In this document: piece by piece, positions 37,760 to 56,771 of the stretch
How positions within the stretch are numbered: the first letter of the stretch is position 1
Layout of the letters: each line of letters starts with the position of its first letter
Assembly (NCBI GenBank): GCA_043754375.1
Contig: JAYUVA010000164.1
Location: forward strand, 1,945-65,944
DNA from: Candidatus Kuenenia sp.
Lineage (GTDB): Bacteria; Planctomycetota; Planctomycetia; Planctomycetales; Planctomycetaceae
Reading direction: 5' to 3'
DNA length: 64,000 nt
Position numbers and translations under genes: made by a program
The notes under the pieces: generated by a model
What the model was told of the DNA's origin: nothing
The model's database searches: none
The model's input: the letters and a program-made list of their open reading frames with translations, nothing else

Positions 37760-38391
37760 CAGCCGATCTGTTTCATCAGTCACCGCTGCAGCAGGCCATC
37801 CATGCACTTCGATCAGACCTGATTCAGGATGACGGGCCTCGCATCAGCACGATGCGCAACTACCGATTTGCGATCGTCCAGTATGAGCCAAAGGATGAAT
37901 TTCGGCTGCGTCGGGAAATCCGAAAGCTGCACTCCGATCTGATCTCCAACGGATGGATGGTGCTTTCCATCAGCTTGCAGAAGTTGTTGCTCGATCGTGT
38001 TCGGGCACAGGGCGAGGAGTTCGTTCAACATTTGATCGAACGCGAAAAGCGGACGGCAAAGAGATCCATTGCGAGAGGACTTCAGGATCTGCAGAGCAGG
38101 CTGGCTCCATTGATCGAAGGTCCCGAAGGCATTGCGGCAGATTGCAGTCGGATTATCTGCGAGTACGCCGATCAAAATCCGGACAAACTTGACCGAACGC
38201 TGGCCGTCATTGGTCGCGCCGGAGCCCTGTATCCATTTTTTCGTTCTTCTGCATTGCTTCGACATCTTGACGGACGAACAAGGAATGTTCCCGTCGTCTT
38301 ACTGTACCCAGGTGAGCGTCGAGGCGAGAAGGGTCTGTCGTTTATGGGTGTTGTGGAACCTGACAGTGATTACCGGCCTCGAATCTATTGA
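37756..38391 (+). CDS. brxB: BrxB-like protein (DUF1788-type)
   Basis: ATGA overlap with brxA. YRFAIVQYEPKDEFRLRREI resembles the conserved N-terminal block of DUF1788 proteins. Confidence 0.7.
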   Translation: MTADLFHQSPLQQAIHALRSDLIQDDGPRISTMRNYRFAIVQYEPKDEFRLRREIRKLHSDLISNGWMVLSISLQKLLLDRVRAQGEEFVQHLIEREKRTAKRSIARGLQDLQSRLAPLIEGPEGIAADCSRIICEYADQNPDKLDRTLAVIGRAGALYPFFRSSALLRHLDGRTRNVPVVLLYPGERRGEKGLSFMGVVEPDSDYRPRIY

Positions 38392-38428
38392 CTGACCTTG
38401 CTGTTAATTTGGTTGTGAAAGCGCTCAG

Positions 38429-41400: not shown

Positions 41401-42100
41401 GCGACAAACAAAGCCGACGGTTCAGCGAGTTAAGAAACATCTGGACGATCTGATTGATGGTGTGAAGATGCTCAACCGGTTCGGCGCTGAGCTGACCGAA
41501 GAATCACTGGAGCTACTGCGTAAAGCGGAGAGTATCTGCCAGAACGAAGTCGCACAGCTGCGGGATGTCGATGCTCTCACAGGCGTGGAATTGGAAGCAG
41601 CCAAACGTATCTCCGACCAGCTGCAGTCTTCACGTCCGTGGGTTGACGCCGGAGCATTGCAACCGGATATGGACAAGATTCGTGAGGCCTATTCAGCCCA
41701 ACGCAAACGGCTATTGGAATGGCAGGAGCAGCAGGCTGAGCAGTCCCGTGGGCGAATTCGCATGCGGGATGGTTACAGCACGTTGTCAACTGAAAAGTCG
41801 CACAATGTGCTCAGGCCAATCAACGATGCAACCACGGATACAACGGTGGATGCGGTGGCCCCGGTTCTGCGTGATCTGAAGGATCGCTTTACTGTCGATT
41901 TGCAGGAAGCGGAAAAAGTCGCCAACAAGCTCCTTGATGATTATCTCAGTGGTGGCACAAATCCAATCATCGTGCCTGTGGATCTGTCTTTACAAAACCG
42001 AGAACTGAAAACCAAAGAAGATGTCGAAGCGCTGGTGGATGAGATTCGTGAACGTTTGCTGGAGCAGCTTCGCACTGGCCAGCGGATTCGACTGGTCTAA
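38429..42100 (+). CDS. brxC: BrxC/PglY P-loop ATPase (1223 aa)
   Basis: Walker A GFYGSGKSS at 38744-38767. Size and position between brxB and pglX fit. Confidence 0.88.
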   Translation: MSRKEASAVGESPSGFSINPSIIRDLFRQDVTRDIPPVVYFHEQSPEKVQDEVSEYIITGGWNKEHPNYKRVPDGIHEQYVSLLKAITKELDKNGGPSLPTAWISGFYGSGKSSFAKLLGLALDGVELPNGKSLAETLLARDMSDRAQEFRDAWKNLRQKIAEPFAVVYDIGGFARDNEHIHSACVRQVQRRLGYCADRLVADFELRLEQSGEWRRFLDVAREIGHPWEEEKNQPFADEVFSEILHHFDKDRYIEPMSWIDSRSGTVIADSPEEAVAAIREMMRFRKPNGTLFIVVDEVSQYVLSNDQRVDKLRSMASELGSQLKGKAWLFALGQQKIDEEAGDAFLVWAKDRFPLQLRVHLAATNIRDVVHRRLLQKTREGEEVLRKLFEKHRPDLKLFAFGCEDVSADEFVEVYPLLPGQIDLLLQITSAMRIRSARAQGDDQAIRGLLQLLGELFRDQNLADLPVGTLITLDSIYEIQKTALDSDTQASMARILSETANKGPMLQRAAKAVALLELIQETRPTEARLVAQCLYDSVHRGSQVTEVTDALELLRGENLLAYSEKLGYRIQSTAGEEWERDKREIRASREAISEIVRDAIKMVMEKPDKPAYKKRPFPWAAVFSDGKGITDEKILRPKDEAVVYVDLRFMPQDDQAESTWIERSNETSLRDRIVWVCGDTTELTDSARSLAKARGMVRKFGERRNSLSDPKKLLLQQEEVKIETLESDIRGTVESAWMSGTIYFRGKSYKPDDFGAKFSVAILKAAERVMPTLFEHFDPVTLQPSELEQLLLPELTGPSTKFLKDELGILELDSGKYQPTCSGVIPVRIRDYIESEDGVSGASLLTKFAGPPYAYQPEVIKACVLGLLRGSRLKIEDESGNEITAVRDAGVREVFDKTTSFRRAQFIPAGDDDIGIRARAKICKFFDEQLSEPLDREDNAIADAVQKHFQNVATRLRDVVRSFDRLPGKRETLKELDRLNGALETCLAKVRQTKPTVQRVKKHLDDLIDGVKMLNRFGAELTEESLELLRKAESICQNEVAQLRDVDALTGVELEAAKRISDQLQSSRPWVDAGALQPDMDKIREAYSAQRKRLLEWQEQQAEQSRGRIRMRDGYSTLSTEKSHNVLRPINDATTDTTVDAVAPVLRDLKDRFTVDLQEAEKVANKLLDDYLSGGTNPIIVPVDLSLQNRELKTKEDVEALVDEIRERLLEQLRTGQRIRLV

Positions 42101-42112
42101 GGAGTCGATCCG

Positions 42113-45100
42113 ATGACAATGACTTCCGAAGCCAAGGGCAAACTGTCGAAGACCATTCGCGCCTTGCGAGAACGGTTACTTACGAACCTGAGTGAAGCAA
42201 CCGATCGAGAGTACAAACTCAGCATTCGTACGCCAAAACTGGATTCGGCGAAAACGGCCAGGCGAAAGCGACTGGAAGACTGGCTGGCAGAACAGGCCCG
42301 CGCGGAAACCGGCAAGCAAAAACGCACGCGGGACGACTTCCGGCGCGAAGCCGAGCAGCAGGCGGCTTACACCCTGCTGAACAGGCTTGTCATTCTTCGG
42401 GTCATGGAAGCCACTGGACTCCGGAAACCGAAGGTTGTCACCGGCGGCTGGAACAGTCAGGGATACAAGGATTTTCGCGAGCTGGCTCCGGCCCTGGTTC
42501 GTGACGACGAAAGCGAAGGCTACTCGTTTCTGCTGCAACTGATTTTCGAGGATCTGGCTACTGACCTGCCCGGTCTATATGGCTCCGTCGGGGTCGCCGA
42601 CCTGATTCCCGTACCATCAGCAACGATTCGAGCTGTTGTGGAAGCGTTTGACGATTCGGAATTGGAGTCCTGCTGGACCGATGACATGACGCTCGGCTGG
42701 GTCTACCAGTATTGGAATGATCCTCAGCGCGAAGCTCTGGACAAGAAGATCAACGAGGGCGGCAAGATTGAGCCACATGAGATCGCCAGCAAGACCCAGA
42801 TGTTTACCGAGCGGTACATGGTCGACTGGTTGCTGCAGAACAGTCTCGGGCCGATGTGGCTGGCCATGTGCAGGAAGCATGGCTGGACGCCGGAAGTGGA
42901 AGCCGATGGCACGCTGCAACGATTGGAAGATCGGCGGGTCGCCTGGCGAGCGAAACGAGACGCGGGCGAGGTCGAGCTGACCGACCTGATGCCGCTGGAG
43001 ACCAATGCCGAAAAACGCTGGGCCTATTATGTACCGCAGCCCATCCCGGATGATGCGGTGGAGCATGCGCCGGACAGTGTGCGCGATCTGAAGATTCTTG
43101 ATCCCGCTGTCGGCTCTGGTCACTTCCTTGTCGTCGCGTTCGATCTGCTGGTTGCACTCTATAAGGAAGAAGCCCGCCACCGTGCAGCCGCGCCCCTTCT
43201 CCGCGACGGGGGAGAAGGGGCCCAAAGGTCGGATGAAGGAGCAGCAACAGATGACAAATGGTCCGATGTCGCGATCGTCGAACGGATTCTCGAACACAAT
43301 CTGCACGGCATTGACCTGGATTCCAGGGCTGTCCAGATCGCGGCCGCAGCACTGTGGCTGAAGTCGCAGCAAACGTGTCCTGCGGCCCATCCGAGGCAGC
43401 TCAATTTGGTGGCTTCGAATCTTGGCATCGCAAGTCTGCCGGACAATGACCCGGCACTTGTCGAGCTGCGTGCAGCAGTGGAAAATGAGACGGGAATCCC
43501 GGCAAAGCTGACGAATCAGATTGTCGAAGCATTGCGAGGTGCCGACCATCTGGGAAGTCTGCTGAAGGTCGATGCGGCCATCGAGACAGCGATCTCGCAG
43601 TATGAGGAGCAAATCGGGTGGAAGAAGAAAGTTCGCCAGATTGACATGTTTCCGGACGGTACGATGGAATCAAAACCACGACCGATTTCGCGAGATTGGG
43701 CACAGAGCAGCTTGCTGGCAGCCTTAGAGTTGTTCTTAAGTCGACATACCAGCGCTCAGGAACTCGGTCTCCGGCTGAGAGGTGAACAACTCGCGGCCGG
43801 CGTACGGTTCGTTCGCATCGCAAAAGAAGGGACTTACAACCTCGTAGTTGGAAATCCACCGTACCAAGGCACAACAAAATTATCGAACTCTCAATACATC
43901 GAGAACAACTATGTTCGAGGTAAAGCGGACTTATATGCGGCATTCTTAATCAGGTCGCTGGAGCTTACCTGCGCTTCAGGTACTTCGGCGCTTTTAACTA
44001 TGCGGAATTGGATGTTTATACAGCAGTACTACTCTTTGCGAAGCTGGTTACTAAGAGAGTATGATTTTCGAGCTATTGGAGATTTTGCCATTGGTGCTTT
44101 TGACGAAGTCGCCAACGACCTTCTTTCGGTCACAGTGGCTGTATTCCGGAAGTCAACGCCGAGCGGTGTGCCGTGTGCCGCTCAACAGCCTACTCCGCCT
44201 TCTGATCGCTCTTATGACCGTCAGCGCACAATTCGTAAGCGTGCAGCTACACTTGCAGGTGTCGGTAGGATGTGCTTTAGCGTTGGGCAAATGCAACTGC
44301 TGCCGGACAACGCCATTGTGTACTGGTGGAGTGATGATAAGGTTGCAGATTTCACAAAGTACCCTCTACTTGGATCAGAATCGTCTGTGCATCAGGGATT
44401 GGCAACTTCAGACAATTCGCGGCACTTATTTCGGCCTTGGGAGATGCACTGGTCCAGTATTGCCACAGAATCAACTTCCGACTGGGCAAATTACGGATGG
44501 GCACCGCACATCAAGGGGGCTGACGGAAAAGTGTGGTTCGAGCCTTTGGATATCATCATCAGATGGAAGAACTGGGGCCTTCAACTGCGGGCGTTTCACG
44601 AGTATCGCCATGGCAGTCACACTAAACGAATGCCGAATGAAGATACGTACTTGCGGCACCTGGGAGTTGCATTCAGTACCATTGGGAGTGATTTTACCGC
44701 AAGATGTTACAAATACTTCAGTGTTTACGATGCTGCAGGGTGTACGGTCTTCACATCAGATCGTTTTACGACTTGTTGTCTGCTAAACTCTGCTTACGCG
44801 AGAGATATCGTAGGTGGATTGAATCCTAGCATGTCGTTTACAAATGCAGATGTTGAGAGGGTGCCACTGAGGGCAATCGAAGGCACTCATGCTGTATTTC
44901 GAATTCTAGACCACGCGTTCACGATCCACGAGTCTTGCCGTGAACCTTCGGTTGAGTTTAGGCAACCGAGATCATCACCGTGGGGGCATGCTCAGGAATG
45001 GGCGCAATTGGCCGTTGATCGCATCGAGGGTGAACCGCTGCCCGAATATGTCGAACAACTCGACCCCGAGCCGCCGACCGATCATCTCAGCTTCGCCGTC

Positions 45101-46480
45101 GGCGTCGCCCTCGGCCGCTTCGACGCCAACGGCGAAGGGATTGTCGATCCGACTCAAGATGATCTGTCTCAGACATTGCCCCACGGCATCCTGTTCCTCG
45201 ATGGTTCCCTCGGCGACGAGGACCTCCGTGATTCTCTGGGACACGATGCCACTCAGATCGTTCACGACAACTGGACCGAATACGGTTCCCAGATAGACAC
45301 GCGAAGATCGCTTCGCGGCTGGCTCCGGGAGAAATTCTTTAGCGACGTCCACCGGCAGATGTATGAGAATCGCCCGATCCACTGGCCGCTATCGTCAGCA
45401 AAGAAGACGTTCATCGCCTGGTTGACGATCCATCGCTGGACCGACCAGACGCTGAGAGTCCTGCTGGCCGATCATCTTGAACCGGCCCTCAAACGTCTTG
45501 ACGGTGAAATCGCCGACCTGACGGCCGCTCGCGGAACGGGCGACAAGAAGCAGGCTCGCGCCGCGGAACAACGCTTCGATGACGTCAAAGCGTGGCGAGA
45601 CGAACTGGTCGAGTTCATTGCCAATATCCAGCAATGTGCCGAACGCGGCCCGGCTCCTGCTGACCCGAAGAAACCGGAACGCGAAGTCGATGCTCGGTAC
45701 GTACCCGATCTGGATGATGGAGTGATGGTCAACAGCTCCGCCCTCTGGCCGCTGCTCGACCCACAGTGGAAAGATCCCAAGAAGTGGTGGAAAGAACTGG
45801 TCGCCGCCAAAGGCAAGAAAGACTACGACTGGTCCCACCTCGCGATGCGCTACTGGCCGACTCGTGTCGATCAGAAGTGCCAGACTGATCCCTCGCTCGG
45901 CGTCGCACACGGCTGTTTCTGGAAATACCACCCGGCCCGCGCTTGGGCCTGGGAACTTCGACTGCAAGACGAGATCGGTCCCGACTTCCTGATTAAAGAA
46001 GCGGCATACACTCCAGGCATTTACACCCGTCCCGAGAATTCTGAAAACCGAAAACCGAAAACCAAAAACTCCAAGTCCAATAGAGCGGACATCGATCTGC
46101 GATGCGAATTCATCGACTCGGCGCCGGCAGAAGCTCTTGTAGCCGTGGAAAAGGAAGTCCTCCGCCGTCGACGGAAACAAAAACAACCGCAGACCGAACT
46201 TCGGGTTCTGGAATCGGGTCTGTGGACTTCATCCCCTGACGACTGCTGGCAAATGGAAATTCGACTCATCGAGAAGCAGCAAGCTGACTTCCGGTTATTA
46301 TCCCCCGAAGAACCGAATGCCCGTGCGAGATTCGAAGAGTCTCACCCCGACCTCGTTGAATTCCGGCAAGCACTCCTGTTTCGTCTGAACCCGCCAGATT
46401 TGTACGCCGACGAGGAGGAAGAAGAAGGTTTGGCTGTTGCTGAGAGCGAAGACACCGAGTCAGAGGAGTTGGAGGACTGA
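42113..46480 (+). CDS. pglX: PglX N6-adenine DNA methyltransferase (1455 aa)
   Basis: SAM-binding motif I DPAVGSGH at 43100-43123. Catalytic motif IV NPPY at 43853-43864. An AAGGAG Shine-Dalgarno is present. The C-terminal tail is acidic. Confidence 0.92.
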   Translation: MTMTSEAKGKLSKTIRALRERLLTNLSEATDREYKLSIRTPKLDSAKTARRKRLEDWLAEQARAETGKQKRTRDDFRREAEQQAAYTLLNRLVILRVMEATGLRKPKVVTGGWNSQGYKDFRELAPALVRDDESEGYSFLLQLIFEDLATDLPGLYGSVGVADLIPVPSATIRAVVEAFDDSELESCWTDDMTLGWVYQYWNDPQREALDKKINEGGKIEPHEIASKTQMFTERYMVDWLLQNSLGPMWLAMCRKHGWTPEVEADGTLQRLEDRRVAWRAKRDAGEVELTDLMPLETNAEKRWAYYVPQPIPDDAVEHAPDSVRDLKILDPAVGSGHFLVVAFDLLVALYKEEARHRAAAPLLRDGGEGAQRSDEGAATDDKWSDVAIVERILEHNLHGIDLDSRAVQIAAAALWLKSQQTCPAAHPRQLNLVASNLGIASLPDNDPALVELRAAVENETGIPAKLTNQIVEALRGADHLGSLLKVDAAIETAISQYEEQIGWKKKVRQIDMFPDGTMESKPRPISRDWAQSSLLAALELFLSRHTSAQELGLRLRGEQLAAGVRFVRIAKEGTYNLVVGNPPYQGTTKLSNSQYIENNYVRGKADLYAAFLIRSLELTCASGTSALLTMRNWMFIQQYYSLRSWLLREYDFRAIGDFAIGAFDEVANDLLSVTVAVFRKSTPSGVPCAAQQPTPPSDRSYDRQRTIRKRAATLAGVGRMCFSVGQMQLLPDNAIVYWWSDDKVADFTKYPLLGSESSVHQGLATSDNSRHLFRPWEMHWSSIATESTSDWANYGWAPHIKGADGKVWFEPLDIIIRWKNWGLQLRAFHEYRHGSHTKRMPNEDTYLRHLGVAFSTIGSDFTARCYKYFSVYDAAGCTVFTSDRFTTCCLLNSAYARDIVGGLNPSMSFTNADVERVPLRAIEGTHAVFRILDHAFTIHESCREPSVEFRQPRSSPWGHAQEWAQLAVDRIEGEPLPEYVEQLDPEPPTDHLSFAVGVALGRFDANGEGIVDPTQDDLSQTLPHGILFLDGSLGDEDLRDSLGHDATQIVHDNWTEYGSQIDTRRSLRGWLREKFFSDVHRQMYENRPIHWPLSSAKKTFIAWLTIHRWTDQTLRVLLADHLEPALKRLDGEIADLTAARGTGDKKQARAAEQRFDDVKAWRDELVEFIANIQQCAERGPAPADPKKPEREVDARYVPDLDDGVMVNSSALWPLLDPQWKDPKKWWKELVAAKGKKDYDWSHLAMRYWPTRVDQKCQTDPSLGVAHGCFWKYHPARAWAWELRLQDEIGPDFLIKEAAYTPGIYTRPENSENRKPKTKNSKSNRADIDLRCEFIDSAPAEALVAVEKEVLRRRRKQKQPQTELRVLESGLWTSSPDDCWQMEIRLIEKQQADFRLLSPEEPNARARFEESHPDLVEFRQALLFRLNPPDLYADEEEEEGLAVAESEDTESEELED
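46043..46070 (+). repeat. Heptanucleotide tandem repeat (GAAAACC)x3 plus one degenerate copy inside pglX
   Basis: gaaaacc gaaaacc gaaaacc aaaaact, read directly. The unit length is not a multiple of 3. Confidence 0.8.
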
Positions 46481-46553
46481 TTTCAGTATGATGGCGTTGG
46501 CCGCGAGAGTCAGACGTCCGTACTAGTGCGGCATCGGAAAAACGAGAGATCCT

Positions 46554-49190
46554 ATGGCTGAAGAAATCGAAAACATGTTTCCACGGGGAGCTGAATGGGT
46601 TCGTGCGGATTTTCATTTGCACACACTCAAAGAGCCCGGTGCGTCTCGCCAAAAGTTACGTGCTGAGTTTAAGGACAAGGAAAACAGTTTTGTCAAAGCG
46701 TGGATCGATCAATTGGTGAATGCGACGGTTCGCGTTGCTGTCGTCACCAACCACAATCACTTCGACGTGGGAGAATTCAAAGCTCTGCGAAAGGCTGCCA
46801 GAAAAGAGGGAATTCTCGTCCTGCCGGGATTGGAATTGGGAATCAACGGTGGAAAAAACGGCATTCACGCATTGATCGTTTTCTCGCCAGACTGGATTGA
46901 TGACCCAGCGGCAAATGATGGGATTGATCGATTCTTGAAGTCGCAGTTTACGACTTCACCTGATGAAGGTTCACGCACGAATGACGACATTGCCGGATGC
47001 CTTGAGCGGCTGGACAGCTACAACAAAGACTATTTTGTTGTTTTTGCTCACGTTCAGTCAGACAACGGTTTGATCAATGAACTGAATTGGGGCACTCTGA
47101 AGGAAACGATTGAACGGTGTAATGACCGCTGGAATCGCGTGCTCGGCTTGCAGAAGGTGACCAATCCGGAAGTTCTTCAAAAGCATTGGCCTGTAGGACT
47201 GCCAGCATTTGTGGAAGGTTCTGATCCTCGAGACAGTATTACAGAAATCAGTCAGGCCGAGCGTGCGTGTTGGATCAAGATCGGAGATCTCAGTTTCGAG
47301 GCGGTACGGTTTGCTTTGATGGATCACAATCAGCGAGTCCGGCTAACTCCTCCAGAGATGCGGTCCGGTCCCGCACTGCACAGCGTCCGATTTGAAGGCG
47401 GCCTGCTGGACGGCCAGGAGTACGGTCTGTCCGAACAATTGACCACATTGATCGGCTCCCGTGGTAGCGGAAAGTCCAGCGTGATCGAATGTCTGAGATA
47501 CGCTCTGGGGCAAGACCCATCAGATGATGACGCGAAGTATAAGAATGGCCTGGTGAAGGCAATGCTGGCTAACGGTGCAGACGTCATCGTTACAGGCCGC
47601 AATGAACACAATCAACTGGTAGAGATTCGGCGACCTTTGGGCTTTGACCCCAAAGTCTACCTCGAAGGTGCTGAAACACGACTTCGCCCGACGGATGTGT
47701 TGCCGGGGTTGTTGTACTTTGGGCAGAAGGATCTTGGGACTCGTCGTGAATCGTTCGAAGCGGAGTTCTTTTCACAACTCACCGGGGCTCGAACGGCACA
47801 GGATCGCGAGCAGGAGTCAAAGCTTGAACAAAAAGTCATTCAGGCCGTAGCAGACTTTCAGGCTGTCCAGAAGGCAAGAGGACTCGATGACGAATACGCT
47901 CAGGAACAGGAACGTCTAAAGCATCAACTTGCAATTTACGCGGACAAGGGCGTCGAAGAGAGACTTTCATCTCTGACGGTTTTTGATGCAGATCGTCGAT
48001 CCGTCAAAGAACGACTGGATCAACTACATGTATTTTCGCAACAGTTTCGTAGAGAAGACGCCGCGTGGCGCGAGATCATGTCAGACTGGCCGGAACTGAA
48101 GAGTCCGTCGCTGAAAGATGCGTCCGATCGCCTCAAGGCCGCGTTCGATACCCTGCAAGGCCTGAAAGCAAAATTTGACCAAACGGTTGAAGGTTTGAGT
48201 GCACTTTCGAAGGAATTTGAAAGCATTCTCGCGAGCGTCAAGGAAACGGAACGCGGTCTTCAGGAAGGCTTTGCCCAGCTTCAGCGTGAAATCAATGAGC
48301 CGGGTTTGAATCTTGATGAGTACCGAAAGAAAAAGTCGCGTCACAGTCAATTGGTCAAATTGCAAGAGGCCGCCGCAAACAGAATTCAGGCAGAGCAAAC
48401 ATCCCTTTCCAAGGTCCTTTCGGCGGGCGAAGAACTTTATCGCTTCCGCCGGGAGCTGCACCGCAGGGAAGAAGCAGGACTGTTGGCTTATGCAAAGTCG
48501 ATCCCTGACTCGATTAAACTGAGTACCCGATTCGAGGATGATCGTGAGGCATTTGGGCAATTCCTGTCTGATCAACTGAAAGGGCAGGGGTTTCGAGCAA
48601 CCACTCGACAACTTGTCGTGGAGAAGTTCAGGAATGGCCTGGCCATTTTCGAGAAGCGAGATCGTCTTGAAGAAGACCTTGGAGCAAACGCTGACGTGGG
48701 TAAGTTGCGAACGGCGCTCTTCGCAAACCTCCAGGCATTTCTCACATACCGTGTCCCGGATCGTCGCGAGATCACTTTCAATGGCACGCCAGTGGCTCAA
48801 CTTTCACTCGGTCAGCGTGCTACCGCGATTCTATCGCTGCTGACGTCGCTGGATCGGCATCCGATCATGTTGTTGGACCAGCCGGAAGACGACTTAGACA
48901 ACGAAACGATCTTTCGCAACGTTGTCGAGCCGTTGAGAGATCGCAAAAAACGCTGTCAGTTCATCATCGCGACCCACAATGCGAACATTCCTGTTCTGGG
49001 TGATGCCGAACAGATCCACGCATGCCGGGAAATTCAAAAAGGCCAATACGCTCATCAATCCGGCAGCCTTGACTGTCCGGCTACAAGTAAAACCATCGTC
49101 GACATAATGGAAGGTGGTGCCGAAGCATTCCTCCGGCGCCAAAAGGTACTGCAGCAATGGACGAAATCAGTCTCCGACAGGAAATCCTGA
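46554..49190 (+). CDS. PHP-domain + Rad50/SMC-like ABC ATPase fusion (878 aa)
   Basis: N-terminal PHP-type motifs DFHLHT (HLHT at 46614-46625), VVTNHNHF and PGLELG. Walker A GSRGSGKSS at 47454-47480. A long charged, coiled-coil-like middle region. Signature-like LSLGQRA, Walker B IMLLDQPEDDLD (~48866-48899) and H-loop-like IIATHNANI. Confidence 0.85.
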   Translation: MAEEIENMFPRGAEWVRADFHLHTLKEPGASRQKLRAEFKDKENSFVKAWIDQLVNATVRVAVVTNHNHFDVGEFKALRKAARKEGILVLPGLELGINGGKNGIHALIVFSPDWIDDPAANDGIDRFLKSQFTTSPDEGSRTNDDIAGCLERLDSYNKDYFVVFAHVQSDNGLINELNWGTLKETIERCNDRWNRVLGLQKVTNPEVLQKHWPVGLPAFVEGSDPRDSITEISQAERACWIKIGDLSFEAVRFALMDHNQRVRLTPPEMRSGPALHSVRFEGGLLDGQEYGLSEQLTTLIGSRGSGKSSVIECLRYALGQDPSDDDAKYKNGLVKAMLANGADVIVTGRNEHNQLVEIRRPLGFDPKVYLEGAETRLRPTDVLPGLLYFGQKDLGTRRESFEAEFFSQLTGARTAQDREQESKLEQKVIQAVADFQAVQKARGLDDEYAQEQERLKHQLAIYADKGVEERLSSLTVFDADRRSVKERLDQLHVFSQQFRREDAAWREIMSDWPELKSPSLKDASDRLKAAFDTLQGLKAKFDQTVEGLSALSKEFESILASVKETERGLQEGFAQLQREINEPGLNLDEYRKKKSRHSQLVKLQEAAANRIQAEQTSLSKVLSAGEELYRFRRELHRREEAGLLAYAKSIPDSIKLSTRFEDDREAFGQFLSDQLKGQGFRATTRQLVVEKFRNGLAIFEKRDRLEEDLGANADVGKLRTALFANLQAFLTYRVPDRREITFNGTPVAQLSLGQRATAILSLLTSLDRHPIMLLDQPEDDLDNETIFRNVVEPLRDRKKRCQFIIATHNANIPVLGDAEQIHACREIQKGQYAHQSGSLDCPATSKTIVDIMEGGAEAFLRRQKVLQQWTKSVSDRKS

Positions 49191-50335
49191 AGGGTGAAGA
49201 CAATCGCCGACAGTTCAAGCGTGAAGTGACAAATGGATTGGCGATAGCATCTGAGATCGCAGCGTTCTTGAACGCTGCCGGTGGCCAGATTTTCGTTGGA
49301 GTTGAACGAGATGGCGCTATTCGAGGTTTGTCGAACCAGCAAATCGAAGAATTGAACCAACTCATCAGCAACGCCATAACTCAAAGTATCCAGCCTCCAG
49401 TCGGAGTTGAGACAGAGAATGTCTCGACCTCTGATGGGACAGTTCTTGTGATCAGCATTGATGACGGTCCCGACAAACCTTATCAGACTTCCGATGGATA
49501 CTTCTGGGTCAAGCGAGGCTCCGATAAACGGCGTGTCAATTCGAGGACGGAACTGAAACGCATGTTTCAGACGGGACACGATGTCTACGCAGAAACGCGA
49601 CCAGTTCCCGGTGCAACGTTGGCAACGCTCGATGCAGATGCTTATGCACGCTTCTACACGGAAAAATATGGTCGAGCGGTTCCGGAGGACGATGCATTGC
49701 TCGAACGCGAGCTGACGGCCAGTCGACTCATGCATAACGGCCTATTGACGACAGCCGGTGTATTGCTTTTTTGCAGACAACCAGAACGACTCGTGCCGGC
49801 ATTCTGTGTGAAAGCCGTTTGGTATAAAGGAAACGATCGTGCAGGGACAGAGTTCCGTGTCAGCGATCGATTCGATGGAACATTGCGGGAACAGTACGAA
49901 AAGGGGATGGCTTTCCTCAGAAGGTGGAATTCACGAGTCCCCGACGGAGGCTCTTTCAATACGTCTCGGGCAGAGATTCCCGAGTACGTGTTTGAAGAGT
50001 TATTGACGAATGCTTTGGTGCATCGCGACTACTTTATTGATGATTCCGTAAAACTGTTCATTTTTGATGATCGAATCGAGATTCGCAGCCCTGGCCGATT
50101 GCCAAATAGCCTCACTGTGGAGGCCATTCGACATGGCATCCGCCGAGACAGAAATCCTGTTCTGGTCTCATTTGCCTACGACGTCCTGAACTACCGAGGC
50201 CTCGGCAGCGGTATGCTCCGAGTGTTGTCTGTCATTCCCGACCTTGGTATCGAAAACGACGTCGAGGCAGAGGAAGTCACTGTGACGATCTCGCTTGCAG
50301 TTGGACAGGCCCCTGCTCATGGAACGGTCGAATGA
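49157..50335 (+). CDS. AlbA_2 (Schlafen-type) domain protein with C-terminal HATPase-like/wHTH region (often annotated RecG-like or transcriptional regulator)
   Basis: EDNRRQFKREV...IAAFLNAAGGQIFVGVERDGAIRGL fits the AlbA_2 pattern. C-terminal ELLTNALVHRDYF...IEIRSPGRLPN is present. It overlaps the upstream gene by 34 nt and pglZ by ATGA. Confidence 0.78.
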   Translation: MDEISLRQEILKGEDNRRQFKREVTNGLAIASEIAAFLNAAGGQIFVGVERDGAIRGLSNQQIEELNQLISNAITQSIQPPVGVETENVSTSDGTVLVISIDDGPDKPYQTSDGYFWVKRGSDKRRVNSRTELKRMFQTGHDVYAETRPVPGATLATLDADAYARFYTEKYGRAVPEDDALLERELTASRLMHNGLLTTAGVLLFCRQPERLVPAFCVKAVWYKGNDRAGTEFRVSDRFDGTLREQYEKGMAFLRRWNSRVPDGGSFNTSRAEIPEYVFEELLTNALVHRDYFIDDSVKLFIFDDRIEIRSPGRLPNSLTVEAIRHGIRRDRNPVLVSFAYDVLNYRGLGSGMLRVLSVIPDLGIENDVEAEEVTVTISLAVGQAPAHGTVE

Positions 50336-53280
50336 GCGTATCCTCGGTCACTGGATCGCTGGGTCCCGTTTCGAAAGTGCTCGAAGCCGATCTTCAGGAT
50401 TGGCTTTCGAAGCATAGCCTCATCATCTGGCTTGATGCCGACGATCTCTACAGCGATTTCGTGGGCCAGCTCATTGAACTACGAAAGACAGAACAGCTCA
50501 AATACGACGTCTACACTTTCCGTGGAAGCCATCTGGAGCTGATGCTTGAGTTGGAAAACGTGACGGGCGGCATCGACACCACTCGAGCCGTGATTCATCT
50601 GCCGGGTTTCAACGAAGAGACCGTCAAGTCGACTCCCTTGTTCGAGCTTTATCGCGCCGGCAAGCGTTATCGTAAAGCGCTCGACACACTTGTCCGAGAA
50701 GCAGCGGGTGGGAAAGTCCGGCCGGATCAAATTGAAGAGTTCCTGCAGCGTGGCAATCTCAACCTGTCTGCCGCCGATCTTTGGCTGGGAGATCTGTTGT
50801 CGACAGGCTCGGAAGGGTTGGCGAGCCAGCTACGCCATGTGTCGCTGAACGAACTCGTCGATGATTTGCTCCTGAATCGCTCGCTGGCCAGGCGAATTTC
50901 CGCAGTCGATTTTCGGGTGCAACCCGATGGTCCTGAGCCTGCGATGGATGCGGGAGATCAGGTTGCCATCCGGGATCGGATCGTGTCTCTCACGGGGATG
51001 CCTGAATCCTGGTTCGACGAAAGTTTGCGGAGTTCATTTTCGAGTGGGCACGAACAAACATCCGTCGAAGCGGTGGCCTATGCGATCTGTAGTTGGGCGG
51101 CCTGCGTGAGCTATGTACACGATTTGCTGGTGCCGCCCAAATCGCCGTTCCTGCGGCCAGTCCCGAAATTGCCTGATCAAGTCAAGAACGCCTGTCATGA
51201 CCTCGTATTGCACTTGCAGAACGGTAACGACCGGCAGCGTTCGTTCTATCGTCAAACGGCACAGGAGACGGAGTCCCGGCTGACAGACGATGTTGGCAAG
51301 ATCGCAGCAGAGGATCTGGGACGATTCGACACGTTCCAGTTTGAAGAGGAAACGATCCTGAAGGCGTCGCTGTTGGCGTTACAAGAAGGACGCTGGAAGG
51401 CGGCTCAGGACTGGGCAGCACGGCGTTCAGATCCGAACTCATTCTGGTTACGGGATGATGCACTCAGACGAAATGTCTGGCAGCTTGTTACTGATGCGGC
51501 CCGATTGGGAATGGCAATCATTGCTGCAGGCCCCGTATTGAAATCGACAGATAGTCTGCACGCAGCCGTTGAAGAATATACCAGAGTTGGGGCAGAGGTT
51601 GACCAGGCCCATCGCCATCTCGAGCAAGACCGTCAAAAGCTGCTGCGTTCGCAGATGCCAGATTTTGAGTCGCTGCGATCATGTCTCGATCGGATGCAGA
51701 CCGTCTGGCGCGAATGGGCCAACAAGTGGTCTCGTGCGTTCAATGCGGTTTGCATGGCACATGGCTTTCTGCCTGACACGTCGTCACAGCAGCGGACGCT
51801 GTTCGACGAAGAAGTCAAACCACTGATATCGGAGTACGGGACAACGGCCTATTTCGTTGTGGATGCTCTGCGATATGAAATGGGATGCGAGTTGCTTGAT
51901 GCCGTGAAGGATTCAGTTCAAACCAATGTGAAACTGGCATGGCGGCTTTCGGAGCTGCCCAGCGTCACAGAAGTTGGTATGAATGTACTGGCTCCCGTTG
52001 CAAAGGGCTCGCGTCTGCAGCCGGAATTGTCGAATGGAAAGATACTGGGTTTCTCAACAGGCGAGTTTCGTGTGTCTGATCCGAAATCCCGTCAACGTGC
52101 GATGCATGACCGAATCGGTGGGGACACATGTCCCTGGCTCGACCTGAGCGAAGTGCTCAGGAGAGATACTAAGAGTCTGACGCGAACGATAGCCCGCTCC
52201 AAACTTATCATCGTGCATAGCCGCGAGATCGACAACGCCGGTGAAGAAGGATTCGGCCCCGCGGTTTTTGAAGGCGTCATGAAGGACCTGCGATCAGCGT
52301 GGCATCTGCTTCGAGAAGCTGGCGTACGAAACTTCGTGTTTACGGCCGATCACGGTTTCCTGTTGGTGGACGAGGATTCTCATACGGCTCAAACTCATGG
52401 CCGCAAAGTTGATCCCAAACGGCGGTATGTCATTTCCGACCATGCCGCCAACCACAATGGCGAAGTCCGGGTGCCTATGCGGGATCTCGGATATGACTGC
52501 GAAGATGCGCAGCTGATGTTTCCTGATTCTGTTGCGGTCTTCGATACAGGGAAAAAGCGAAAAGGATTTGCACATGGCGGGAACAGCTTTCAGGAACGAG
52601 TGATTCCCGTCCTGACAGTGTCGCACCGAGTGCAGGCAGGCGGAAGCGCGACCGCCTACGATGTATCGGCAACCAGGAAAGAAGCGGTCGCTGGGATGCA
52701 ATGCATTGCCGCCAAAGTGTCATTTACACAACGGAGCCTGGATTTCGGCAGCAGTTTTGAGATTGATTTGGCGCTGCGAGTGCCCGATGTGGCAGGCGTG
52801 CTTGCTGAATTATGCGAAATTCGCGGCGGAGCACGGCTGTCGTCCGGCACCGTCATCGCGACTGTCGGAGAGGAATTTGAACTCTTCTTTCGTCTCTCCG
52901 GAAACACGGGTTCGCGAGTTCAAGTTGAACTCTATCACCCCAGCAAGGAGGCAAACGTCGAGTCGTGTATTCTTAAAGAGCGATTTGACGTTTCCTGGTC
53001 GACAATAACTCCAGTAATACCGGGCAACAGCAGCACGGTTGCAATTACTGAAACCTGGCTGAACGATTTGCCGGAGGGACCGGTAAGACGTGTCTTCCAG
53101 CATTTGTCGCAGCACGGCGCGATCACCGAAACGGAAGTCACGAATATGCTGGGTGGCGCCCGGGAGCAGCGAAAGTTCGCCCGCAACTTTGAGAAGTACG
53201 CAGCAAGTGCACCATTCATCGCCCGAATTGATGTTGGAGCAGGAGAGAAACGATATGTTCGGGAGGGCAAAATATCATGA
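50332..53280 (+). CDS. pglZ: PglZ alkaline-phosphatase-fold protein (982 aa)
   Basis: AYFVVDALRYEMG and FTADHGF are PglZ/alkaline-phosphatase-type motifs. ATGA overlaps occur on both sides. Confidence 0.88.
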   Translation: MSVSSVTGSLGPVSKVLEADLQDWLSKHSLIIWLDADDLYSDFVGQLIELRKTEQLKYDVYTFRGSHLELMLELENVTGGIDTTRAVIHLPGFNEETVKSTPLFELYRAGKRYRKALDTLVREAAGGKVRPDQIEEFLQRGNLNLSAADLWLGDLLSTGSEGLASQLRHVSLNELVDDLLLNRSLARRISAVDFRVQPDGPEPAMDAGDQVAIRDRIVSLTGMPESWFDESLRSSFSSGHEQTSVEAVAYAICSWAACVSYVHDLLVPPKSPFLRPVPKLPDQVKNACHDLVLHLQNGNDRQRSFYRQTAQETESRLTDDVGKIAAEDLGRFDTFQFEEETILKASLLALQEGRWKAAQDWAARRSDPNSFWLRDDALRRNVWQLVTDAARLGMAIIAAGPVLKSTDSLHAAVEEYTRVGAEVDQAHRHLEQDRQKLLRSQMPDFESLRSCLDRMQTVWREWANKWSRAFNAVCMAHGFLPDTSSQQRTLFDEEVKPLISEYGTTAYFVVDALRYEMGCELLDAVKDSVQTNVKLAWRLSELPSVTEVGMNVLAPVAKGSRLQPELSNGKILGFSTGEFRVSDPKSRQRAMHDRIGGDTCPWLDLSEVLRRDTKSLTRTIARSKLIIVHSREIDNAGEEGFGPAVFEGVMKDLRSAWHLLREAGVRNFVFTADHGFLLVDEDSHTAQTHGRKVDPKRRYVISDHAANHNGEVRVPMRDLGYDCEDAQLMFPDSVAVFDTGKKRKGFAHGGNSFQERVIPVLTVSHRVQAGGSATAYDVSATRKEAVAGMQCIAAKVSFTQRSLDFGSSFEIDLALRVPDVAGVLAELCEIRGGARLSSGTVIATVGEEFELFFRLSGNTGSRVQVELYHPSKEANVESCILKERFDVSWSTITPVIPGNSSTVAITETWLNDLPEGPVRRVFQHLSQHGAITETEVTNMLGGAREQRKFARNFEKYAASAPFIARIDVGAGEKRYVREGKIS

Positions 53281-54599
53281 CCACAATCACCGCACGCGAT
53301 GTTGAACATGTTTTTGAATCATTGCGCAAGGGACTCGTCCCGGAACGTGCGATCGACACCTTTGCAGTCGGCATCGAGAAGCAGCGCGGAGAACTTCACC
53401 GACAGCTCGATCTCGTTGCAAACAGTGAAGGATCAATCAAGTTTCTCCGCGGTGGCTATGGCTGCGGAAAGACGTTTATGGCTCGACTGGCACTTCTCGA
53501 TGCGCAGGCACGTGGCTTCGCCACCAGTTTTGTGGTTGTGTCAGACAATGATCTGCATTTCCACCGATTCGATGATGTCTACCGAAAGGTCATGACGGAG
53601 CTTGGCACAGCATCCTGTCCGCGGGGTGCTCTTGGCGATATCCTCGATCGATGGATTGGGTCTGTCGAAGAAGCGTTGGTCAACGCTGGTGTTGATGATA
53701 GCGCTGATGACTTCGACGAGAAGGTTCGGAAGCGACTGAACGAAGATTTGGTGTCGTTGACAGGAGGCAAAGCTCCGGAAGACTTTATCCGCGTCATTCA
53801 GACGATTTTTGATCTGAAGCAGGATGGGAATGTGGCTGAAGCGGGAGCATTGATTTCCTGGCTGTGTGGCAGCGGCAATGTGGCGGCATCGGCGAAAAAG
53901 GCAGCTAAGATCAAAGGAGACATCGGTAGCCGGGATGCGTTGCACTACCTGCGAGGTGTGCTGGAGATTGTGAAGGCCGCTGGCTACAAGGGCCTTGTCA
54001 TCGTCATTGATGAAGCGGAGACCATTCTTCGTATGCGAAAGGATTCACGCCATAAGTCGCTGAACGGCATCCGGCAAATCGCCGACGCCGCGAGTTCTTA
54101 TCCTGGACTCTTGTGGCTGATTACCGGCACTGCAGAATTCTTCGACACACGTCAGGGCGTCGCGGGTCTTGCGCCGCTTCATGACCGAATCCGTTTCATT
54201 TCAAGTGGCGACTTCGCGAGCATGCGGCAGGCACAGTTGGAGCTAAAGCCATTTGGGGCAGAACGCCTGAAGGCCGTTGCTCTTCGGCTCAGAGAGCTAC
54301 ATCCGGCGCGGGACCGGTCACGACTTGAATCCGCGATTAGTCATGAGTTCATTCAGCGACTTGTGGACGAAGTCACGACCGGGTTCAAAGGTGATGTTGG
54401 TGTTGTCCCACGACAATTCCTCCGCGAGTTTGTCACCCAGATGGATTTGGTGGATGAAAACGAGGACTATCGACCGTCTGAGCAATATGGCTTCAAGCCT
54501 ACTGACTTGAGCCCCGAGGAACAGACCGCGTTATCGGGACCTCGGTCACGTTCTGATTCGGAGGTTGAGGAACTCGTCCCAATGGAGGATGCGTGGTGA
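53277..54599 (+). CDS. brxD: BrxD ATP-binding protein (440 aa)
   Basis: Walker A GGYGCGKTF (53451-53471) and Walker B VIVIDEAE. Its position between pglZ and the Lhr-like helicase fits. Confidence 0.8.
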   Translation: MTTITARDVEHVFESLRKGLVPERAIDTFAVGIEKQRGELHRQLDLVANSEGSIKFLRGGYGCGKTFMARLALLDAQARGFATSFVVVSDNDLHFHRFDDVYRKVMTELGTASCPRGALGDILDRWIGSVEEALVNAGVDDSADDFDEKVRKRLNEDLVSLTGGKAPEDFIRVIQTIFDLKQDGNVAEAGALISWLCGSGNVAASAKKAAKIKGDIGSRDALHYLRGVLEIVKAAGYKGLVIVIDEAETILRMRKDSRHKSLNGIRQIADAASSYPGLLWLITGTAEFFDTRQGVAGLAPLHDRIRFISSGDFASMRQAQLELKPFGAERLKAVALRLRELHPARDRSRLESAISHEFIQRLVDEVTTGFKGDVGVVPRQFLREFVTQMDLVDENEDYRPSEQYGFKPTDLSPEEQTALSGPRSRSDSEVEELVPMEDAW

Positions 54600-56707
54600 G
54601 CGTCTTTGCCAAACTGGCCCCACGGCTTCAGCAGGCCATCGTTGCCCGCCTTGGCTGGTCCAGTTTGCGACCGGTTCAGGAACAGGCCGGTGAGGCTTTA
54701 TTAAGCGGAAAGAACGCTGTCATTCTCGCTCCAACCGCAGGTGGCAAGACAGAAGCGTCGATGTTTCCGACGCTCTCAAATCTTGTTGAACATCAGCCGG
54801 TGGGTGTTGGTGCGATTTACGTCGCGCCGATCAAGGCCTTGCTGAATAATCAGGAGGATCGCCTCGGCCTCTACACGGAGATGGTAGGACTGCGTCGATT
54901 CGTGTGGCACGGCGACACGACCACCAACGCTCGCAAGCAGTTTCTGGCTGAGCCCGCCGAACTGTTGATGACGACGCCCGAATCACTGGAAGTCATGCTG
55001 GTTTCCACACGTGTCGATGAGCGAGCGTTGTTCAGTGATTTGCGAATGATCGTGATAGACGAAGTGCATGCCATCGCCGGCACGGACCGCGGTGCTCACC
55101 TGATGAGTGTTATCGAGCGAATCCGACGGCTGTCTCGTCACGATCTCCAGCGAGCTGGGTTAAGTGCGACTGTCGGCAATCCAGAAGCAATTCTCGAATG
55201 GCTCCGTGGAACGTCGGAACGGGAAGGAGTCGTGGTCGATCCTCCGAAGAAACCGGCTCGACGGCAACTGCTGATTATGCACGAGCCTGATCAGACACAA
55301 ATTGCAATTGCAGCCGCGCAAGTAGCTCGCGGTTACAAAAGCCTGTTTTTTTGTCAGTCGCGGGCCACAACCGAGGCTGTCGCGGAAACGATGCGACGAG
55401 CCGGAACTAAGGTCTTTGTGCATCATAGTGCTGTATCGAAAGAGGAACGCCTGCTCGCGGAGCAGGAATTCCATCACGGATCTGACGCATGCATCGTCTG
55501 CACTTCGACACTTGAACTGGGGATTGACGTCGGTGATCTCGACAAAGTTCTGCAGGCAAATGCCCCCGAAACAGTTGGGTCGTTCCTGCAGCGGATGGGG
55601 CGAACGGGCCGTCGTGAAGGCCAGACGGCAAACACGACATTTTTCTGTGAGAGTGTCGACACAGTCCTTCAGTCAATCGCATTGATTGAATTGGCGAAAG
55701 CAGGATGGGTGGAAGATGTTGGGGTTAAACAGCGTTGTTGGCCAGTGCTGATTCACCAATTGCTGGCGATGTCTCTGGCCAGCAATGGCATCCCAACCGA
55801 GGACGCCTGGTCGCACCTCTCAGCTGTTCCGGATTTTCGGGGGATCGCGCGCGATGAGTTTGATCGGTTGATTGACTGGATGATCGCTGACAATTCATTG
55901 ATTCTGGCAGGCGGTCGCCTGATCCTGGGGCCCCAGGCAGAACGACGATATGGTCGGCGAAACTTCATGGAGTTGTATGCCGTTTTTTCCAGTCCCCAGT
56001 CGTACTCGGTTGAGACGGCTAACAAGCAAGTCATCGGAACCCTGAATCAGGATTTCGTGGATGGACTCGTTGATGGAGTCAGTTGTTTTCTGCTCGGTGG
56101 TCGTGCATGGGCCGTATTTCACGTCGTTCACAAAGATAGATCAGTCATCGTGGAACCAGCCCCTCGAGGACGGCAGCCAACGTGGGGCGGGTTCCTTCCC
56201 CAGTTTCTCGGCTTCCACCTGTGCCAGAAGATCCTCGATATCCTCACCGTTAACGAACAATATCCCTATCTGAGTCAACCGGCTGCCAGCCTGGTTGACC
56301 AGGAACGTCAAACCTTAGCACCGCTCGTTTCACCAAAAGTCGGCGGTATTGCCAGCAATGGAAACGATGTCACATGGCGCACATTCGCTGGCGGGATGAT
56401 TAACTCAACCCTCCGTTATGCACTGAGTTCACTGGAACCCGGCTGGACGATCACCCCCGACAACTTCTCAATTCGAGTCCGCGACGAGGGCCTGACAGTA
56501 CCACATTTCAATTCGGTCGTAAGGCAGCTGAGATCCCCCGACTTTTGGCAGGACGAATCAGTGTGGCAACAAGTCAGAACATCGCTTCCTGGCTACCGCC
56601 TGAGCAAGTTTCAACCACTCATGCCGCAATGGGTCGAGCAGGAAGTGCTGTTTGATTATCTGCTCGACAGACCAGGCACCGCGGCATGGGTGAAGGATAT
56701 GCCATGA
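54593..56707 (+). CDS. brxHI: BrxHI Lhr-like DEAD/DEAH helicase (704 aa)
   Basis: Motif I APTAGGKTEA (54728-54751), motif II VIDEVHA, motif III SATVGN, motif VI QRMGRTGRR. The GTG start overlaps the brxD stop. Confidence 0.88.
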   Translation: MVSVFAKLAPRLQQAIVARLGWSSLRPVQEQAGEALLSGKNAVILAPTAGGKTEASMFPTLSNLVEHQPVGVGAIYVAPIKALLNNQEDRLGLYTEMVGLRRFVWHGDTTTNARKQFLAEPAELLMTTPESLEVMLVSTRVDERALFSDLRMIVIDEVHAIAGTDRGAHLMSVIERIRRLSRHDLQRAGLSATVGNPEAILEWLRGTSEREGVVVDPPKKPARRQLLIMHEPDQTQIAIAAAQVARGYKSLFFCQSRATTEAVAETMRRAGTKVFVHHSAVSKEERLLAEQEFHHGSDACIVCTSTLELGIDVGDLDKVLQANAPETVGSFLQRMGRTGRREGQTANTTFFCESVDTVLQSIALIELAKAGWVEDVGVKQRCWPVLIHQLLAMSLASNGIPTEDAWSHLSAVPDFRGIARDEFDRLIDWMIADNSLILAGGRLILGPQAERRYGRRNFMELYAVFSSPQSYSVETANKQVIGTLNQDFVDGLVDGVSCFLLGGRAWAVFHVVHKDRSVIVEPAPRGRQPTWGGFLPQFLGFHLCQKILDILTVNEQYPYLSQPAASLVDQERQTLAPLVSPKVGGIASNGNDVTWRTFAGGMINSTLRYALSSLEPGWTITPDNFSIRVRDEGLTVPHFNSVVRQLRSPDFWQDESVWQQVRTSLPGYRLSKFQPLMPQWVEQEVLFDYLLDRPGTAAWVKDMP

Positions 56708-56771
56708 AGGACTTCTCCTGGAAGTACGAAGAGCGAGCAGATCGAGATTCATTGACCAGTAGGCATTCGTG

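Follow-up and report, generated by a model that had tools for sequence, protein, structure and literature searches.

A 64,000-nucleotide stretch of contig JAYUVA010000164.1 from Candidatus Kuenenia sp. (hereafter, the window) carries two adjacent genes, encoding proteins of 878 and 392 amino acids (aa), between pglX and pglZ of a type-6 bacteriophage exclusion (BREX) operon. We are nearly certain that these genes are a copy of the widespread mobile pair trlF-trlG. TrlF is a putative PHP phosphoesterase fused to an SMC/Rad50-like ABC ATPase, and TrlG combines a Schlafen (AlbA_2) domain with a GHKL ATPase and a C-terminal winged helix-turn-helix (wHTH). The pair is an insertion into BREX, and on balance we consider TrlFG to be an accessory, self-contained module that is probably defensive. 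Its most likely role is that of a second-layer defence module of the abortive-infection type which is not a part of BREX; any specific mechanism can be offered only tentatively. The window copy itself is a routine instance of a named cassette. The points of general interest are the linkage of TrlF and TrlG, the preference of the pair for the junction of modification and restriction genes, and the clade-wide E-x4-Q-x-K site of TrlG.

The family assignment follows from both proteins. The 878-aa product passes the NCBIfam model NF045780, 'TrlF family AAA-like ATPase', with 460.7 bits against the cut-off of 350, and the alignment covers residues 11-865 of the protein and positions 1-942 of the 944 in the model. 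In the 392-aa product, Pfam identifies SLFN_AlbA_2 at residues 14-128 (E = 1e-22) and HATPase_c_4 at residues 297-365 (E = 9e-13), almost exactly where TrlG of Photorhabdus has its AlbA_2 (14-128) and HATPase_c_4 (298-365) domains (PMC7554251). In Photorhabdus laumondii, trlR-trlF-trlG form the 'temperature restriction locus' (TRL; Hapeshi et al., 2020; PMC7554251), in which trlF is annotated as histidinol phosphatase. Like the Photorhabdus genes, the window genes stand in the order trlF-trlG and overlap. Unlike them, they are not accompanied by trlR, and they are situated in a BREX operon instead of having a heat-inducible promoter of their own. The identity of window TrlF to enterobacterial TrlF is ~34%. 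The initial annotation of the window knew of no named system that joins a PHP nuclease to a Schlafen-type partner; such a pair does have a name. A match to a named system, which that annotation had listed as refuting its proposal, has therefore come about in part: the name denotes a locus and its phenotype, arrested growth at 36 °C and not defence against phage, and does not stand for a validated defence system. In the literature, TrlF and TrlG are named in only one relevant paper, and no paper joins Schlafen, PHP and phage defence, though Krishnan et al. (2020) may describe the pairing.

The two genes are closely linked far beyond the window. A word-indexed search returned 1393 TrlF relatives at E ≤ 1e-10, and in an exhaustive search the wider PHP-ABC family amounted to ~500 clusters at 50% identity (E ≤ 1e-30). 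Among 80 surveyed loci, one per species and from many phyla, trlG lies directly downstream of trlF in 63, so the AlbA_2 gene is indeed a conserved neighbour of homologues of the 878-aa protein. In 58 of 61 further loci, the stop of trlF and the start of trlG overlap by 4-28 nt, and searches begun from TrlG found TrlF upstream. In the window, both genes are present as initially annotated, i.e., as two open reading frames (ORFs) on the plus strand between pglX and pglZ, with an overlap of 34 nt and an ATGA shared between trlG and pglZ (Table 1). All motifs quoted in that annotation (DFHLHT, TNHNHF, GLELG, GSRGSGKSS, LSLGQRA, and LLDQPEDD) are found in the translation. A scan of the 73-nt pglX-trlF spacer and of the trlG/pglZ junction revealed no sigma-70-like promoter and no terminator-like site, although such a scan may not suit this organism; this is weakly consistent with co-transcription of the pair and BREX. 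The spacer contains no trlR gene. TrlR-like small helix-turn-helix (HTH) ORFs are found upstream of trlF in ~9 surveyed loci, which makes trlR an optional part.

The type-6 BREX set in the window is complete, with all eight genes in order and matched by PADLOC at E ≤ 1e-88, and homologues of the window PglZ are named 'BREX-6 system phosphatase PglZ' by NCBI. Together with the gene overlaps, this confirms the type-6 context and the operon wiring. The window pair, however, is matched by none of the PADLOC BREX models. Moreover, three type-6 BREX loci, those of Planctopirus limnophila DSM 3776, Streptomyces cavernae, and Geomonas paludis, lack the pair, and in all three pglX overlaps pglZ by 4 nt; the P. 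limnophila PglZ is 71% identical to that of the window. The window cassette sits exactly at this junction, and trlG re-creates the ATGA coupling to pglZ. Therefore, the pair is an insertion at a translationally coupled pglX/pglZ junction and not a BREX core gene set; the initial annotation, too, had placed both genes outside the canonical type-6 set. From its position, trlFG would be transcribed with BREX.

That annotation had left two possibilities, an embedded accessory defence module and a novel BREX-associated effector/regulator pair, and our results support the first. The second, according to which the pair would be an integral, overlooked effector or regulator of type-6 BREX, could appeal to its place in the operon, to the ATGA coupling, and to the recurrence of the arrangement: the pair lies between pglX and pglZ in type-6 BREX of relatives with 95% and 67% TrlF identity, and a distant BREX of another type (locus L027) has it between PglX and PglZ as well. 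Still, we regard it as very improbable, as it is contradicted by the type-6 loci without the pair, by the lack of any BREX model match, and by the other settings of the pair, which also occurs alone, next to a type ISP enzyme, and within operons of type I, type III, and Hma-like systems. Schlafen-HK-wHTH genes embedded in BREX loci have been reported in at least 1017 taxa and were interpreted as backup suicidal effectors (PMC12839542). Hence, the general phenomenon is already known; PHP, TrlF, and Ppl are not mentioned in that paper, and the obligate-looking TrlF partner is not described there.

Many other settings of the pair are likewise methylation-based systems. In type III restriction-modification (R-M) operons it is placed between Mod and Res in at least six loci, with eight more having Mod or Res on one side only. 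In a type I context, hsdR, hsdS, and hsdM surround the pair; in an Hma-like context, it stands between a DUF499-DUF3780-DUF1156 methylase set and a PLD/SNF2 helicase; and in one further context it comes straight after a type ISP enzyme. The pair can also stand by itself amid housekeeping genes. Of 34 fully flanked loci, 18 have R-M, BREX, or Hma genes within ~6-7 kb, mostly adjacent and on the same strand; this is a raw share. A Pfam census of the nearest neighbours agrees with this adjacency. L096/L097 (7377-10019) have TrlF as two ORFs of 600 and 261 aa upstream of an intact TrlG, and the neighbouring genes encode an R-M enzyme of type ISP and an Mrr-like protein; the split TrlF may be a decaying copy or an assembly frameshift.

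The AlphaFold2 model of the whole 878-aa TrlF has a predicted local distance difference test (pLDDT) score of 86.5 and consists of an N-terminal alpha/beta domain (residues ~14-262), an ABC head split into residues 274-410 and 654-870, and, separating the two head segments, a short coiled coil of ~230 aa in all, without a zinc hook or hinge; in particular, no CxxC hook is visible in the sequence of the insert. The set of ABC ATPase motifs is complete (Walker A, Q-loop, signature, Walker B, D-loop, and H-loop), split by the coiled coil, and invariant in 59 homologues. Pfam detects SMC_N, AAA_21, AAA_23, and AAA_15, of which AAA_21 and SMC_N fall at residues 745-812, and the best Foldseek matches of the model are the heads of SMC, MukB, JetC, Rad50, RecN, RecF, and LmuB (E from 1e-12 to 1e-7). 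By its motifs and modelled fold, the TrlF ATPase is an SMC/Rad50-type ABC head that may belong to either the OLD or the SMC family.

In the N-terminal domain, the conserved HxH, (D/N)H, E, H, H, and D metal-ligand motifs occur in the PHP order. Profile-profile alignment by hhalign with RNase AM/TrpH of E. coli, a true PHP enzyme, pairs (at E = 0.0014 and a probability of no more than 17.6%) DFHLHT with DLHSHT, VTNHN with ITDHD, PGVEL with PGVEI, and GIHA with EIHI. Against the PDB, the same profile gives a marginal match to the PHP protein TM0559 (E = 0.29). The putative ligands D19, H21, H23, H67, E94, H105, H166, and D224 do not vary among 59 homologues with identities as low as 42%; thus, the site is not degenerate. 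Degeneracy of these residues was an outcome that the initial annotation had named as refuting its proposal. The final His of the canonical PHP ligand set, which we take to comprise nine residues, was not identified in TrlF. Overall, the predicted fusion of a PHP domain with a split ABC ATPase agrees with the TrlF and Ppl family profiles, the motif alignment to RNase AM, the invariant ligands, and the SMC-type heads found by Foldseek.

The nearest named relative of TrlF is Ppl, a single-gene anti-phage protein described as a PHP 3'-5' exonuclease (Gao et al., 2020), whose reported triggers are depletion of nucleoside triphosphates (NTP) and 3'-OH ends. Like TrlF, Ppl has a PHP domain and an NTPase on one polypeptide of ~880 aa, so a named PHP-based system does exist. 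Window TrlF scores 138.6 bits with the NCBIfam Ppl model (NF042955), far below the cut-off of 1000, and the PADLOC Ppl model (PDLC02208) matches it at E = 3e-32 in two stretches, whereas the Ppl profile can be aligned over its entire length with several further members of the TrlF family. From the low score and the end-to-end alignment of relatives it follows that TrlF and Ppl are sister families with the same PHP + NTPase plan, and that by sequence the window protein is a homologue of Ppl and not a member. The 'Spaf_1101 family' model is also matched, far below its cut-off. Among the Foldseek matches of the TrlF model there was no Ppl structure, only SMC-type heads. The main difference is that Ppl acts alone, while TrlF is usually paired with TrlG.

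The AlphaFold2 model of TrlG (pLDDT 84.6) matches the uncharacterised protein DIP2311 over the whole length. Its N-terminal domain resembles mammalian SLFN5, SLFN11, SLFN12, SLFN13, and SLFN14 and the SAMD9 tRNase domain, and its C-terminal half resembles the CA (GHKL ATP-binding) domains of histidine kinases. The AlbA_2-like N-domain and the HATPase-like/wHTH C-terminus of the initial annotation are supported. The GHKL box residues E281, N285, H289, R290, P312, G313, G348, and G352 are conserved in 62 of 62 orthologues, and A36 and N39 of the SAFAN-like box of the AlbA_2 fold are invariant. In addition, the PADLOC pAgo model matches TrlG residues 29-316.

The presumed Schlafen active site of TrlG is a variant. 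In a hidden Markov model (HMM) alignment to SLFN14, E14 of TrlG falls on E211, and Q19 falls on the Glu five residues downstream, which is the second acidic position of the motif. Among TrlF-linked TrlG orthologues, with identities of 35-100%, E14 is present in 62/62, Q19 in 61/62, and K21 in 62/62. By contrast, of eight other proteins with the same Schlafen-GHKL architecture ('Schlatpases') from the same loci, four have E-x4-E-x-K (e.g., ESKNVEFK), none has the Gln form, and the rest have no usable match near the N-terminus. Near-invariance in TrlG and Glu in the four paralogues make the Gln look like a sequence marker of the TrlG clade. We found no mention of E-x4-Q-x-K in the Schlafen and TRL literature that we examined. 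The window TrlG has a further peculiarity at residues 50-52 (49304-49312), where it reads GVERDG and the family consensus is GV-x-DDG: the Asp at position 51, conserved in 48/62 orthologues, is replaced by Arg, and an Asp follows at position 52. The window TrlG would deviate even further from the canonical site if the third acidic ligand came from this stretch, as it does in SLFN proteins.

Proteins of this architecture are common. The 'Schlatpase' supradomain, a Schlafen domain with GHKL (PF13749), usually followed by HTH, has been counted in 60,692 prokaryotic proteins, and pSlfn-HisKinase-HTH proteins make up 19.2% of bacterial Schlafens in another survey (bioRxiv 10.64898/2026.05.29.728809; PMC13056530). 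In a Schlafen-Argonaute, the active tRNase assembles when its GHKL domain binds ATP (same sources). TrlG shares with these prokaryotic Schlafen effectors (Schlatpase modules, SLFN-pAgo, and pSlfn-HisKinase-HTH) the AlbA_2 Schlafen and GHKL domains, with HTH in some, and the conserved N-box and G-boxes of GHKL. It differs from them in the E-x4-Q-x-K motif and in that sensing would fall to a second polypeptide, TrlF, instead of a domain of the same chain. Schlafen-GHKL modules are tRNase effectors; for TrlG, such an activity is putative.

The genetics of Photorhabdus provides a clue to the division of labour. TRL causes growth arrest at 36 °C, and its transcription is induced by heat (PMC7554251). 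All mapped suppressors of the 36 °C arrest, with at least 12 distinct changes, are in trlG, and none is in the twice-larger trlF; they include S16N and A36V in the region of the Schlafen motif and several changes in the GHKL half, and deletion of the entire trl operon has the same effect (PMC7554251). This points to TrlG as the part that arrests growth, and the genetics fits TrlG as the executor, with TrlF dispensable or restraining. Heat could either inactivate TrlF or induce the operon.

In the reading that we favour, TrlF would be an ATP-dependent sensor of foreign or damaged DNA, of DNA ends or structures, or of a disabled host restriction or neighbouring methylation system, and possibly a DNA-end nuclease as well. 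TrlG, made in a fixed ratio with TrlF, would be restrained by it and would arrest growth after its release, or after assembly through ATP-driven oligomerisation, the probable output being cleavage or binding of nucleic acids (tRNA or other RNA). This sensor-effector scheme is modelled on four precedents: Ppl, the ATP-assembled Schlafen-GHKL effectors, PARIS in BREX, and the anticodon nucleases PrrC and RloC. The last two are embedded in type I and type III R-M loci between modification and restriction genes, and couple an ABC-type ATPase, which in RloC has a Rad50-like coiled coil, to a latent RNA-cleaving effector. They differ from TrlFG in the effector fold and in being single polypeptides instead of two proteins. 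A bolder version, which we hold as a tentative proposal, is that TrlFG may be a distinct anti-phage system, a guard wired into methylation-based immunity (BREX, type I, III, and ISP R-M, and Hma), in which a Ppl-like PHP-SMC ATPase would sense phage DNA, or sabotage of the host system by phage, and would control a Schlafen-GHKL protein. The almost invariant E-x4-Q-x-K site would then mean that Schlafen chemistry takes a new form here or that a former nuclease now serves as a sensor.

Several observations weigh against the sensor-effector defence scheme. The sole functional paper on TRL nowhere mentions phage (PMC7554251), and protection against phage is a putative role of TrlFG. About half of the well-flanked loci have no recognisable defence neighbour. 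The PHP call is the least secure part of the TrlF anatomy, as it is based on the motifs, homology to Ppl, and the hhalign match to RNase AM; the Pfam PHP family (PF02811) has no match to residues 1-283 even at E ≤ 10. The published Schlafen nuclease motif is E-x4-(E/D)-x-K, and TrlG with Gln at the second acidic position does not conform to it; in Schlafen-Argonaute, the D32A substitution in the putative SLFN active site abolishes tRNA cleavage (bioRxiv 10.64898/2026.05.29.728809; PMC13056530). We infer that D32 is equivalent to Q19 of TrlG. Given the loss of this acidic residue, TrlG may not be a nuclease. Finally, TrlF occurs without TrlG in ~20% of loci. These solo proteins still pass the TrlF cut-off, and therefore the possibility that they are in fact Spaf_1101 or Ppl proteins was rejected. 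No conserved substitute gene lies downstream of trlF in these loci, and thus TrlF is evidently able to work alone, like Ppl.

The Gln in TrlG and the solo TrlF loci together make a serious rival of the explanation in which TrlF is the whole weapon. In that case, its PHP domain would degrade phage DNA ends under ABC control, and TrlG would be a dead Schlafen, serving as a sensor or binder, or as a regulator acting through GHKL and wHTH. Consistent with this are the replacement of the second acidic residue in 61/62 orthologues, with Glu kept in four other Schlatpases of the same loci, the single-gene action of Ppl, and the invariance of all PHP and ABC motifs. On the other hand, the Photorhabdus arrest is lost without TrlG, yet no suppressor was found in the larger trlF, which would be unexpected if TrlF executed the arrest. 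Moreover, the TrlG residues that were mutated include S16 and A36, which belong to the Schlafen motif and the 'SAFAN' box or adjoin them, indicating that this site matters. We consider TrlF as the sole weapon unlikely, and retain TrlG as the candidate executor.

The cassette is horizontally mobile and a self-contained two-gene module. The pair is frequent on conjugative plasmids of enterobacteria: 773 plasmid records carry it, 534 of them conjugative, and TrlF family members occur in several hundred plasmid records of Klebsiella and Escherichia; full-length matches with ~34% identity to window TrlF and the same hsdR/TrlF/TrlG annotation recur in the listed plasmids of these genera. In the IncC plasmid pNDM102337 (L092, NC_019045.2, 5764-16811), the order is HTH-hsdR-trlF-trlG-hsdS-AAA ATPase-hsdM, with Tn7-like tnsABCD directly upstream, and the hsd-trlFG set is an apparent cargo of this Tn7-like element. 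Copies at least 98.7% identical to the pNDM102337 allele occur in 38 of the 5426 complete E. coli genomes. Compared with the related BREX locus L001, the window has nucleotide identity of 62-82% over pglX, trlG, and pglZ, and of 90-98% over the coiled coil and C-terminal head of trlF (47450-49100), dropping to 65% in the Schlafen domain of trlG. This stretch looks like a recent recombination tract within the cassette, or else reflects unusually strong constraint. The mobility of the cassette follows from the conjugative plasmids, the Tn7-like neighbour, the single allele in a few E. coli genomes, and the recombination tract. A phage origin of the pair was rejected, as only two full-length matches were found among 50,697 phage records.

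This distribution also bears on whether the pair serves immunity at all. It could be a module of stress- or temperature-dependent growth control, or of DNA repair similar to SbcCD/Mre11-Rad50 with a DNA-binding regulator, hitch-hiking in mobile DNA. The sole recorded phenotype, temperature restriction with heat-induced transcription, the presence of Rad50, RecN, and RecF among the structural matches, and the location of about half of the loci among housekeeping genes would be in line with that. Nevertheless, we find it improbable in view of the patchy occurrence within species (38/5426 E. coli genomes and, for TRL, 12/1218 V. cholerae genomes; PMC7554251), the carriage on conjugative plasmids and a Tn7-like element, the repeated placement inside R-M, BREX, and Hma operons, and the anti-phage function of Ppl.

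Among other known systems, PARIS (AriA/AriB), which is listed with the Schlafen-HK-wHTH genes among the backup effectors of BREX (PMC12839542), resembles TrlFG as a pair of an ABC ATPase and an effector within a BREX operon. Unlike in PARIS, the ATPase of TrlF is SMC/Rad50-like and carries a PHP domain. PARIS itself was rejected, as AriA profiles match only ~70 C-terminal residues or match weakly (E from 5e-9 to 9e-6), and there is no Toprim AriB. Lamassu, Gabija, and Septu were rejected as well, since they yielded only short matches in the Walker region; in particular, PADLOC LmuB profiles match weakly, and only over the Walker A region of TrlF. With SMC-like complexes (Lamassu LmuB, Wadjet JetC) and Mre11-Rad50/SbcCD, TrlF shares an ABC ATPase with head and coiled coil and a nuclease partner or domain, the difference being that its predicted nuclease is a fused PHP domain and not Mre11/SbcD, JetD, or LmuA. 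Partial PADLOC matches to mad3 and PDC-M49A were also obtained, and a literature search on both gave nothing useful.

Since it is found where modification and restriction genes meet in at least four kinds of operons, the pair offers a good test case for the idea that methylation-based systems contain 'backup' suicide modules, which fire once the first layer has been disabled. The exchange of the acidic residue for Gln in the TrlG clade is of direct relevance to the working of bacterial Schlafens, and when Schlafen-GHKL genes from this clade are tested for defence, TrlF may have to be present. TrlFG is widespread, IncC plasmids included, and the only phenotype on record for it is the growth stop of Photorhabdus at 36 °C.

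Table 1. Features of the trlFG cassette, the BREX operon, and their surroundings (window coordinates).
Feature	Coordinates	Strand	Remarks
trlF	46554-49190	+	878 aa, ATG start; PHP phosphoesterase (putative) fused to SMC/Rad50-like ABC ATPase with coiled-coil insert
PHP-type phosphoesterase domain, ~aa 14-262	46593-47339	+	Putative; motifs and remote profile matches
N-terminal half of ABC head	47374-47783	+	Walker A GSRGSGKSS, Q-loop FGQKD; G301, R303, G304, G306, K307, S308, Q391 invariant
Antiparallel coiled-coil insert, ~aa 415-647	47797-48494	+	AlphaFold2 helices 415-464, 468-509, 518-580, 587-607, 610-647
C-terminal half of ABC head	48514-49163	+	LSLGQRA, Walker B LLDQPEDD, H-loop ATHN; S751-R755, D775-E784, H808 invariant
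trlG	49157-50335	+	392 aa, ATG start; Schlafen/AlbA_2 + GHKL ATPase + C-terminal wHTH ('Schlatpase')
trlF/trlG overlap	49157-49190	+	34 nt; translational coupling
Variant Schlafen active-site motif E14-x4-Q19-F-K21	49196-49219	+	HMM alignment to SLFN14
pglX-trlF spacer	46481-46553	+	73 nt; pglX stop at 46480
ATGA junction, trlG stop/pglZ start	50332-50335	+	pglZ ORF 50332-53280
brxE, brxA, brxB, brxC, pglX	36390-46480	+	PADLOC BrxE 1e-88, BrxA 1e-119, BrxB 6e-107, BrxC E = 0, PglX E = 0
pglZ, brxD, brxHI	50332-56707	+	PADLOC PglZ E = 0, BrxD 1e-174, BrxHI 5e-272
ZacA (DUF6361)	27810-29072	+	PADLOC 9e-86
ZacB (PLD)	28979-30889	+	PADLOC 7e-121
ZacC (helicase)	30850-33939	+	PADLOC 5e-266
Mutator-family transposase	20567-21328	-	In low-GC part
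ArdC-N-like + M78-peptidase-like gene	23467-24390		In low-GC part

Upstream of BREX, the window contains a complete Azaca system (27810-33939, plus strand). A similar set of DUF4357 and DUF6361/PLD/helicase genes follows the TrlFG-bearing BREX in locus L007 and the Hma-like system in locus L009, suggesting that the same modules travel together in unrelated loci. At ~18 kb, the guanine-cytosine (GC) content falls from ~0.61-0.66 to ~0.49-0.57, and it stays low to the end of the window (at least to 64000). For the low-GC part, which includes Azaca and BREX, a defence island acquired by horizontal transfer is the probable reading. The whole 64-kb window is devoid of tRNA genes. Between Azaca and brxE, a 443-aa ORF (34591-35922, plus strand) has no Pfam or PADLOC match. 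Directly after brxHI, a 1552-aa ORF (56769-61427, plus strand) has weak matches to P-loop NTPases (NPHP3_N, AAA_16) and a partial PADLOC match to PDC-M54A (E = 7e-16), and could represent a further defence gene. A 2811-aa ORF (9069-17504, plus strand) is located in the high-GC part.

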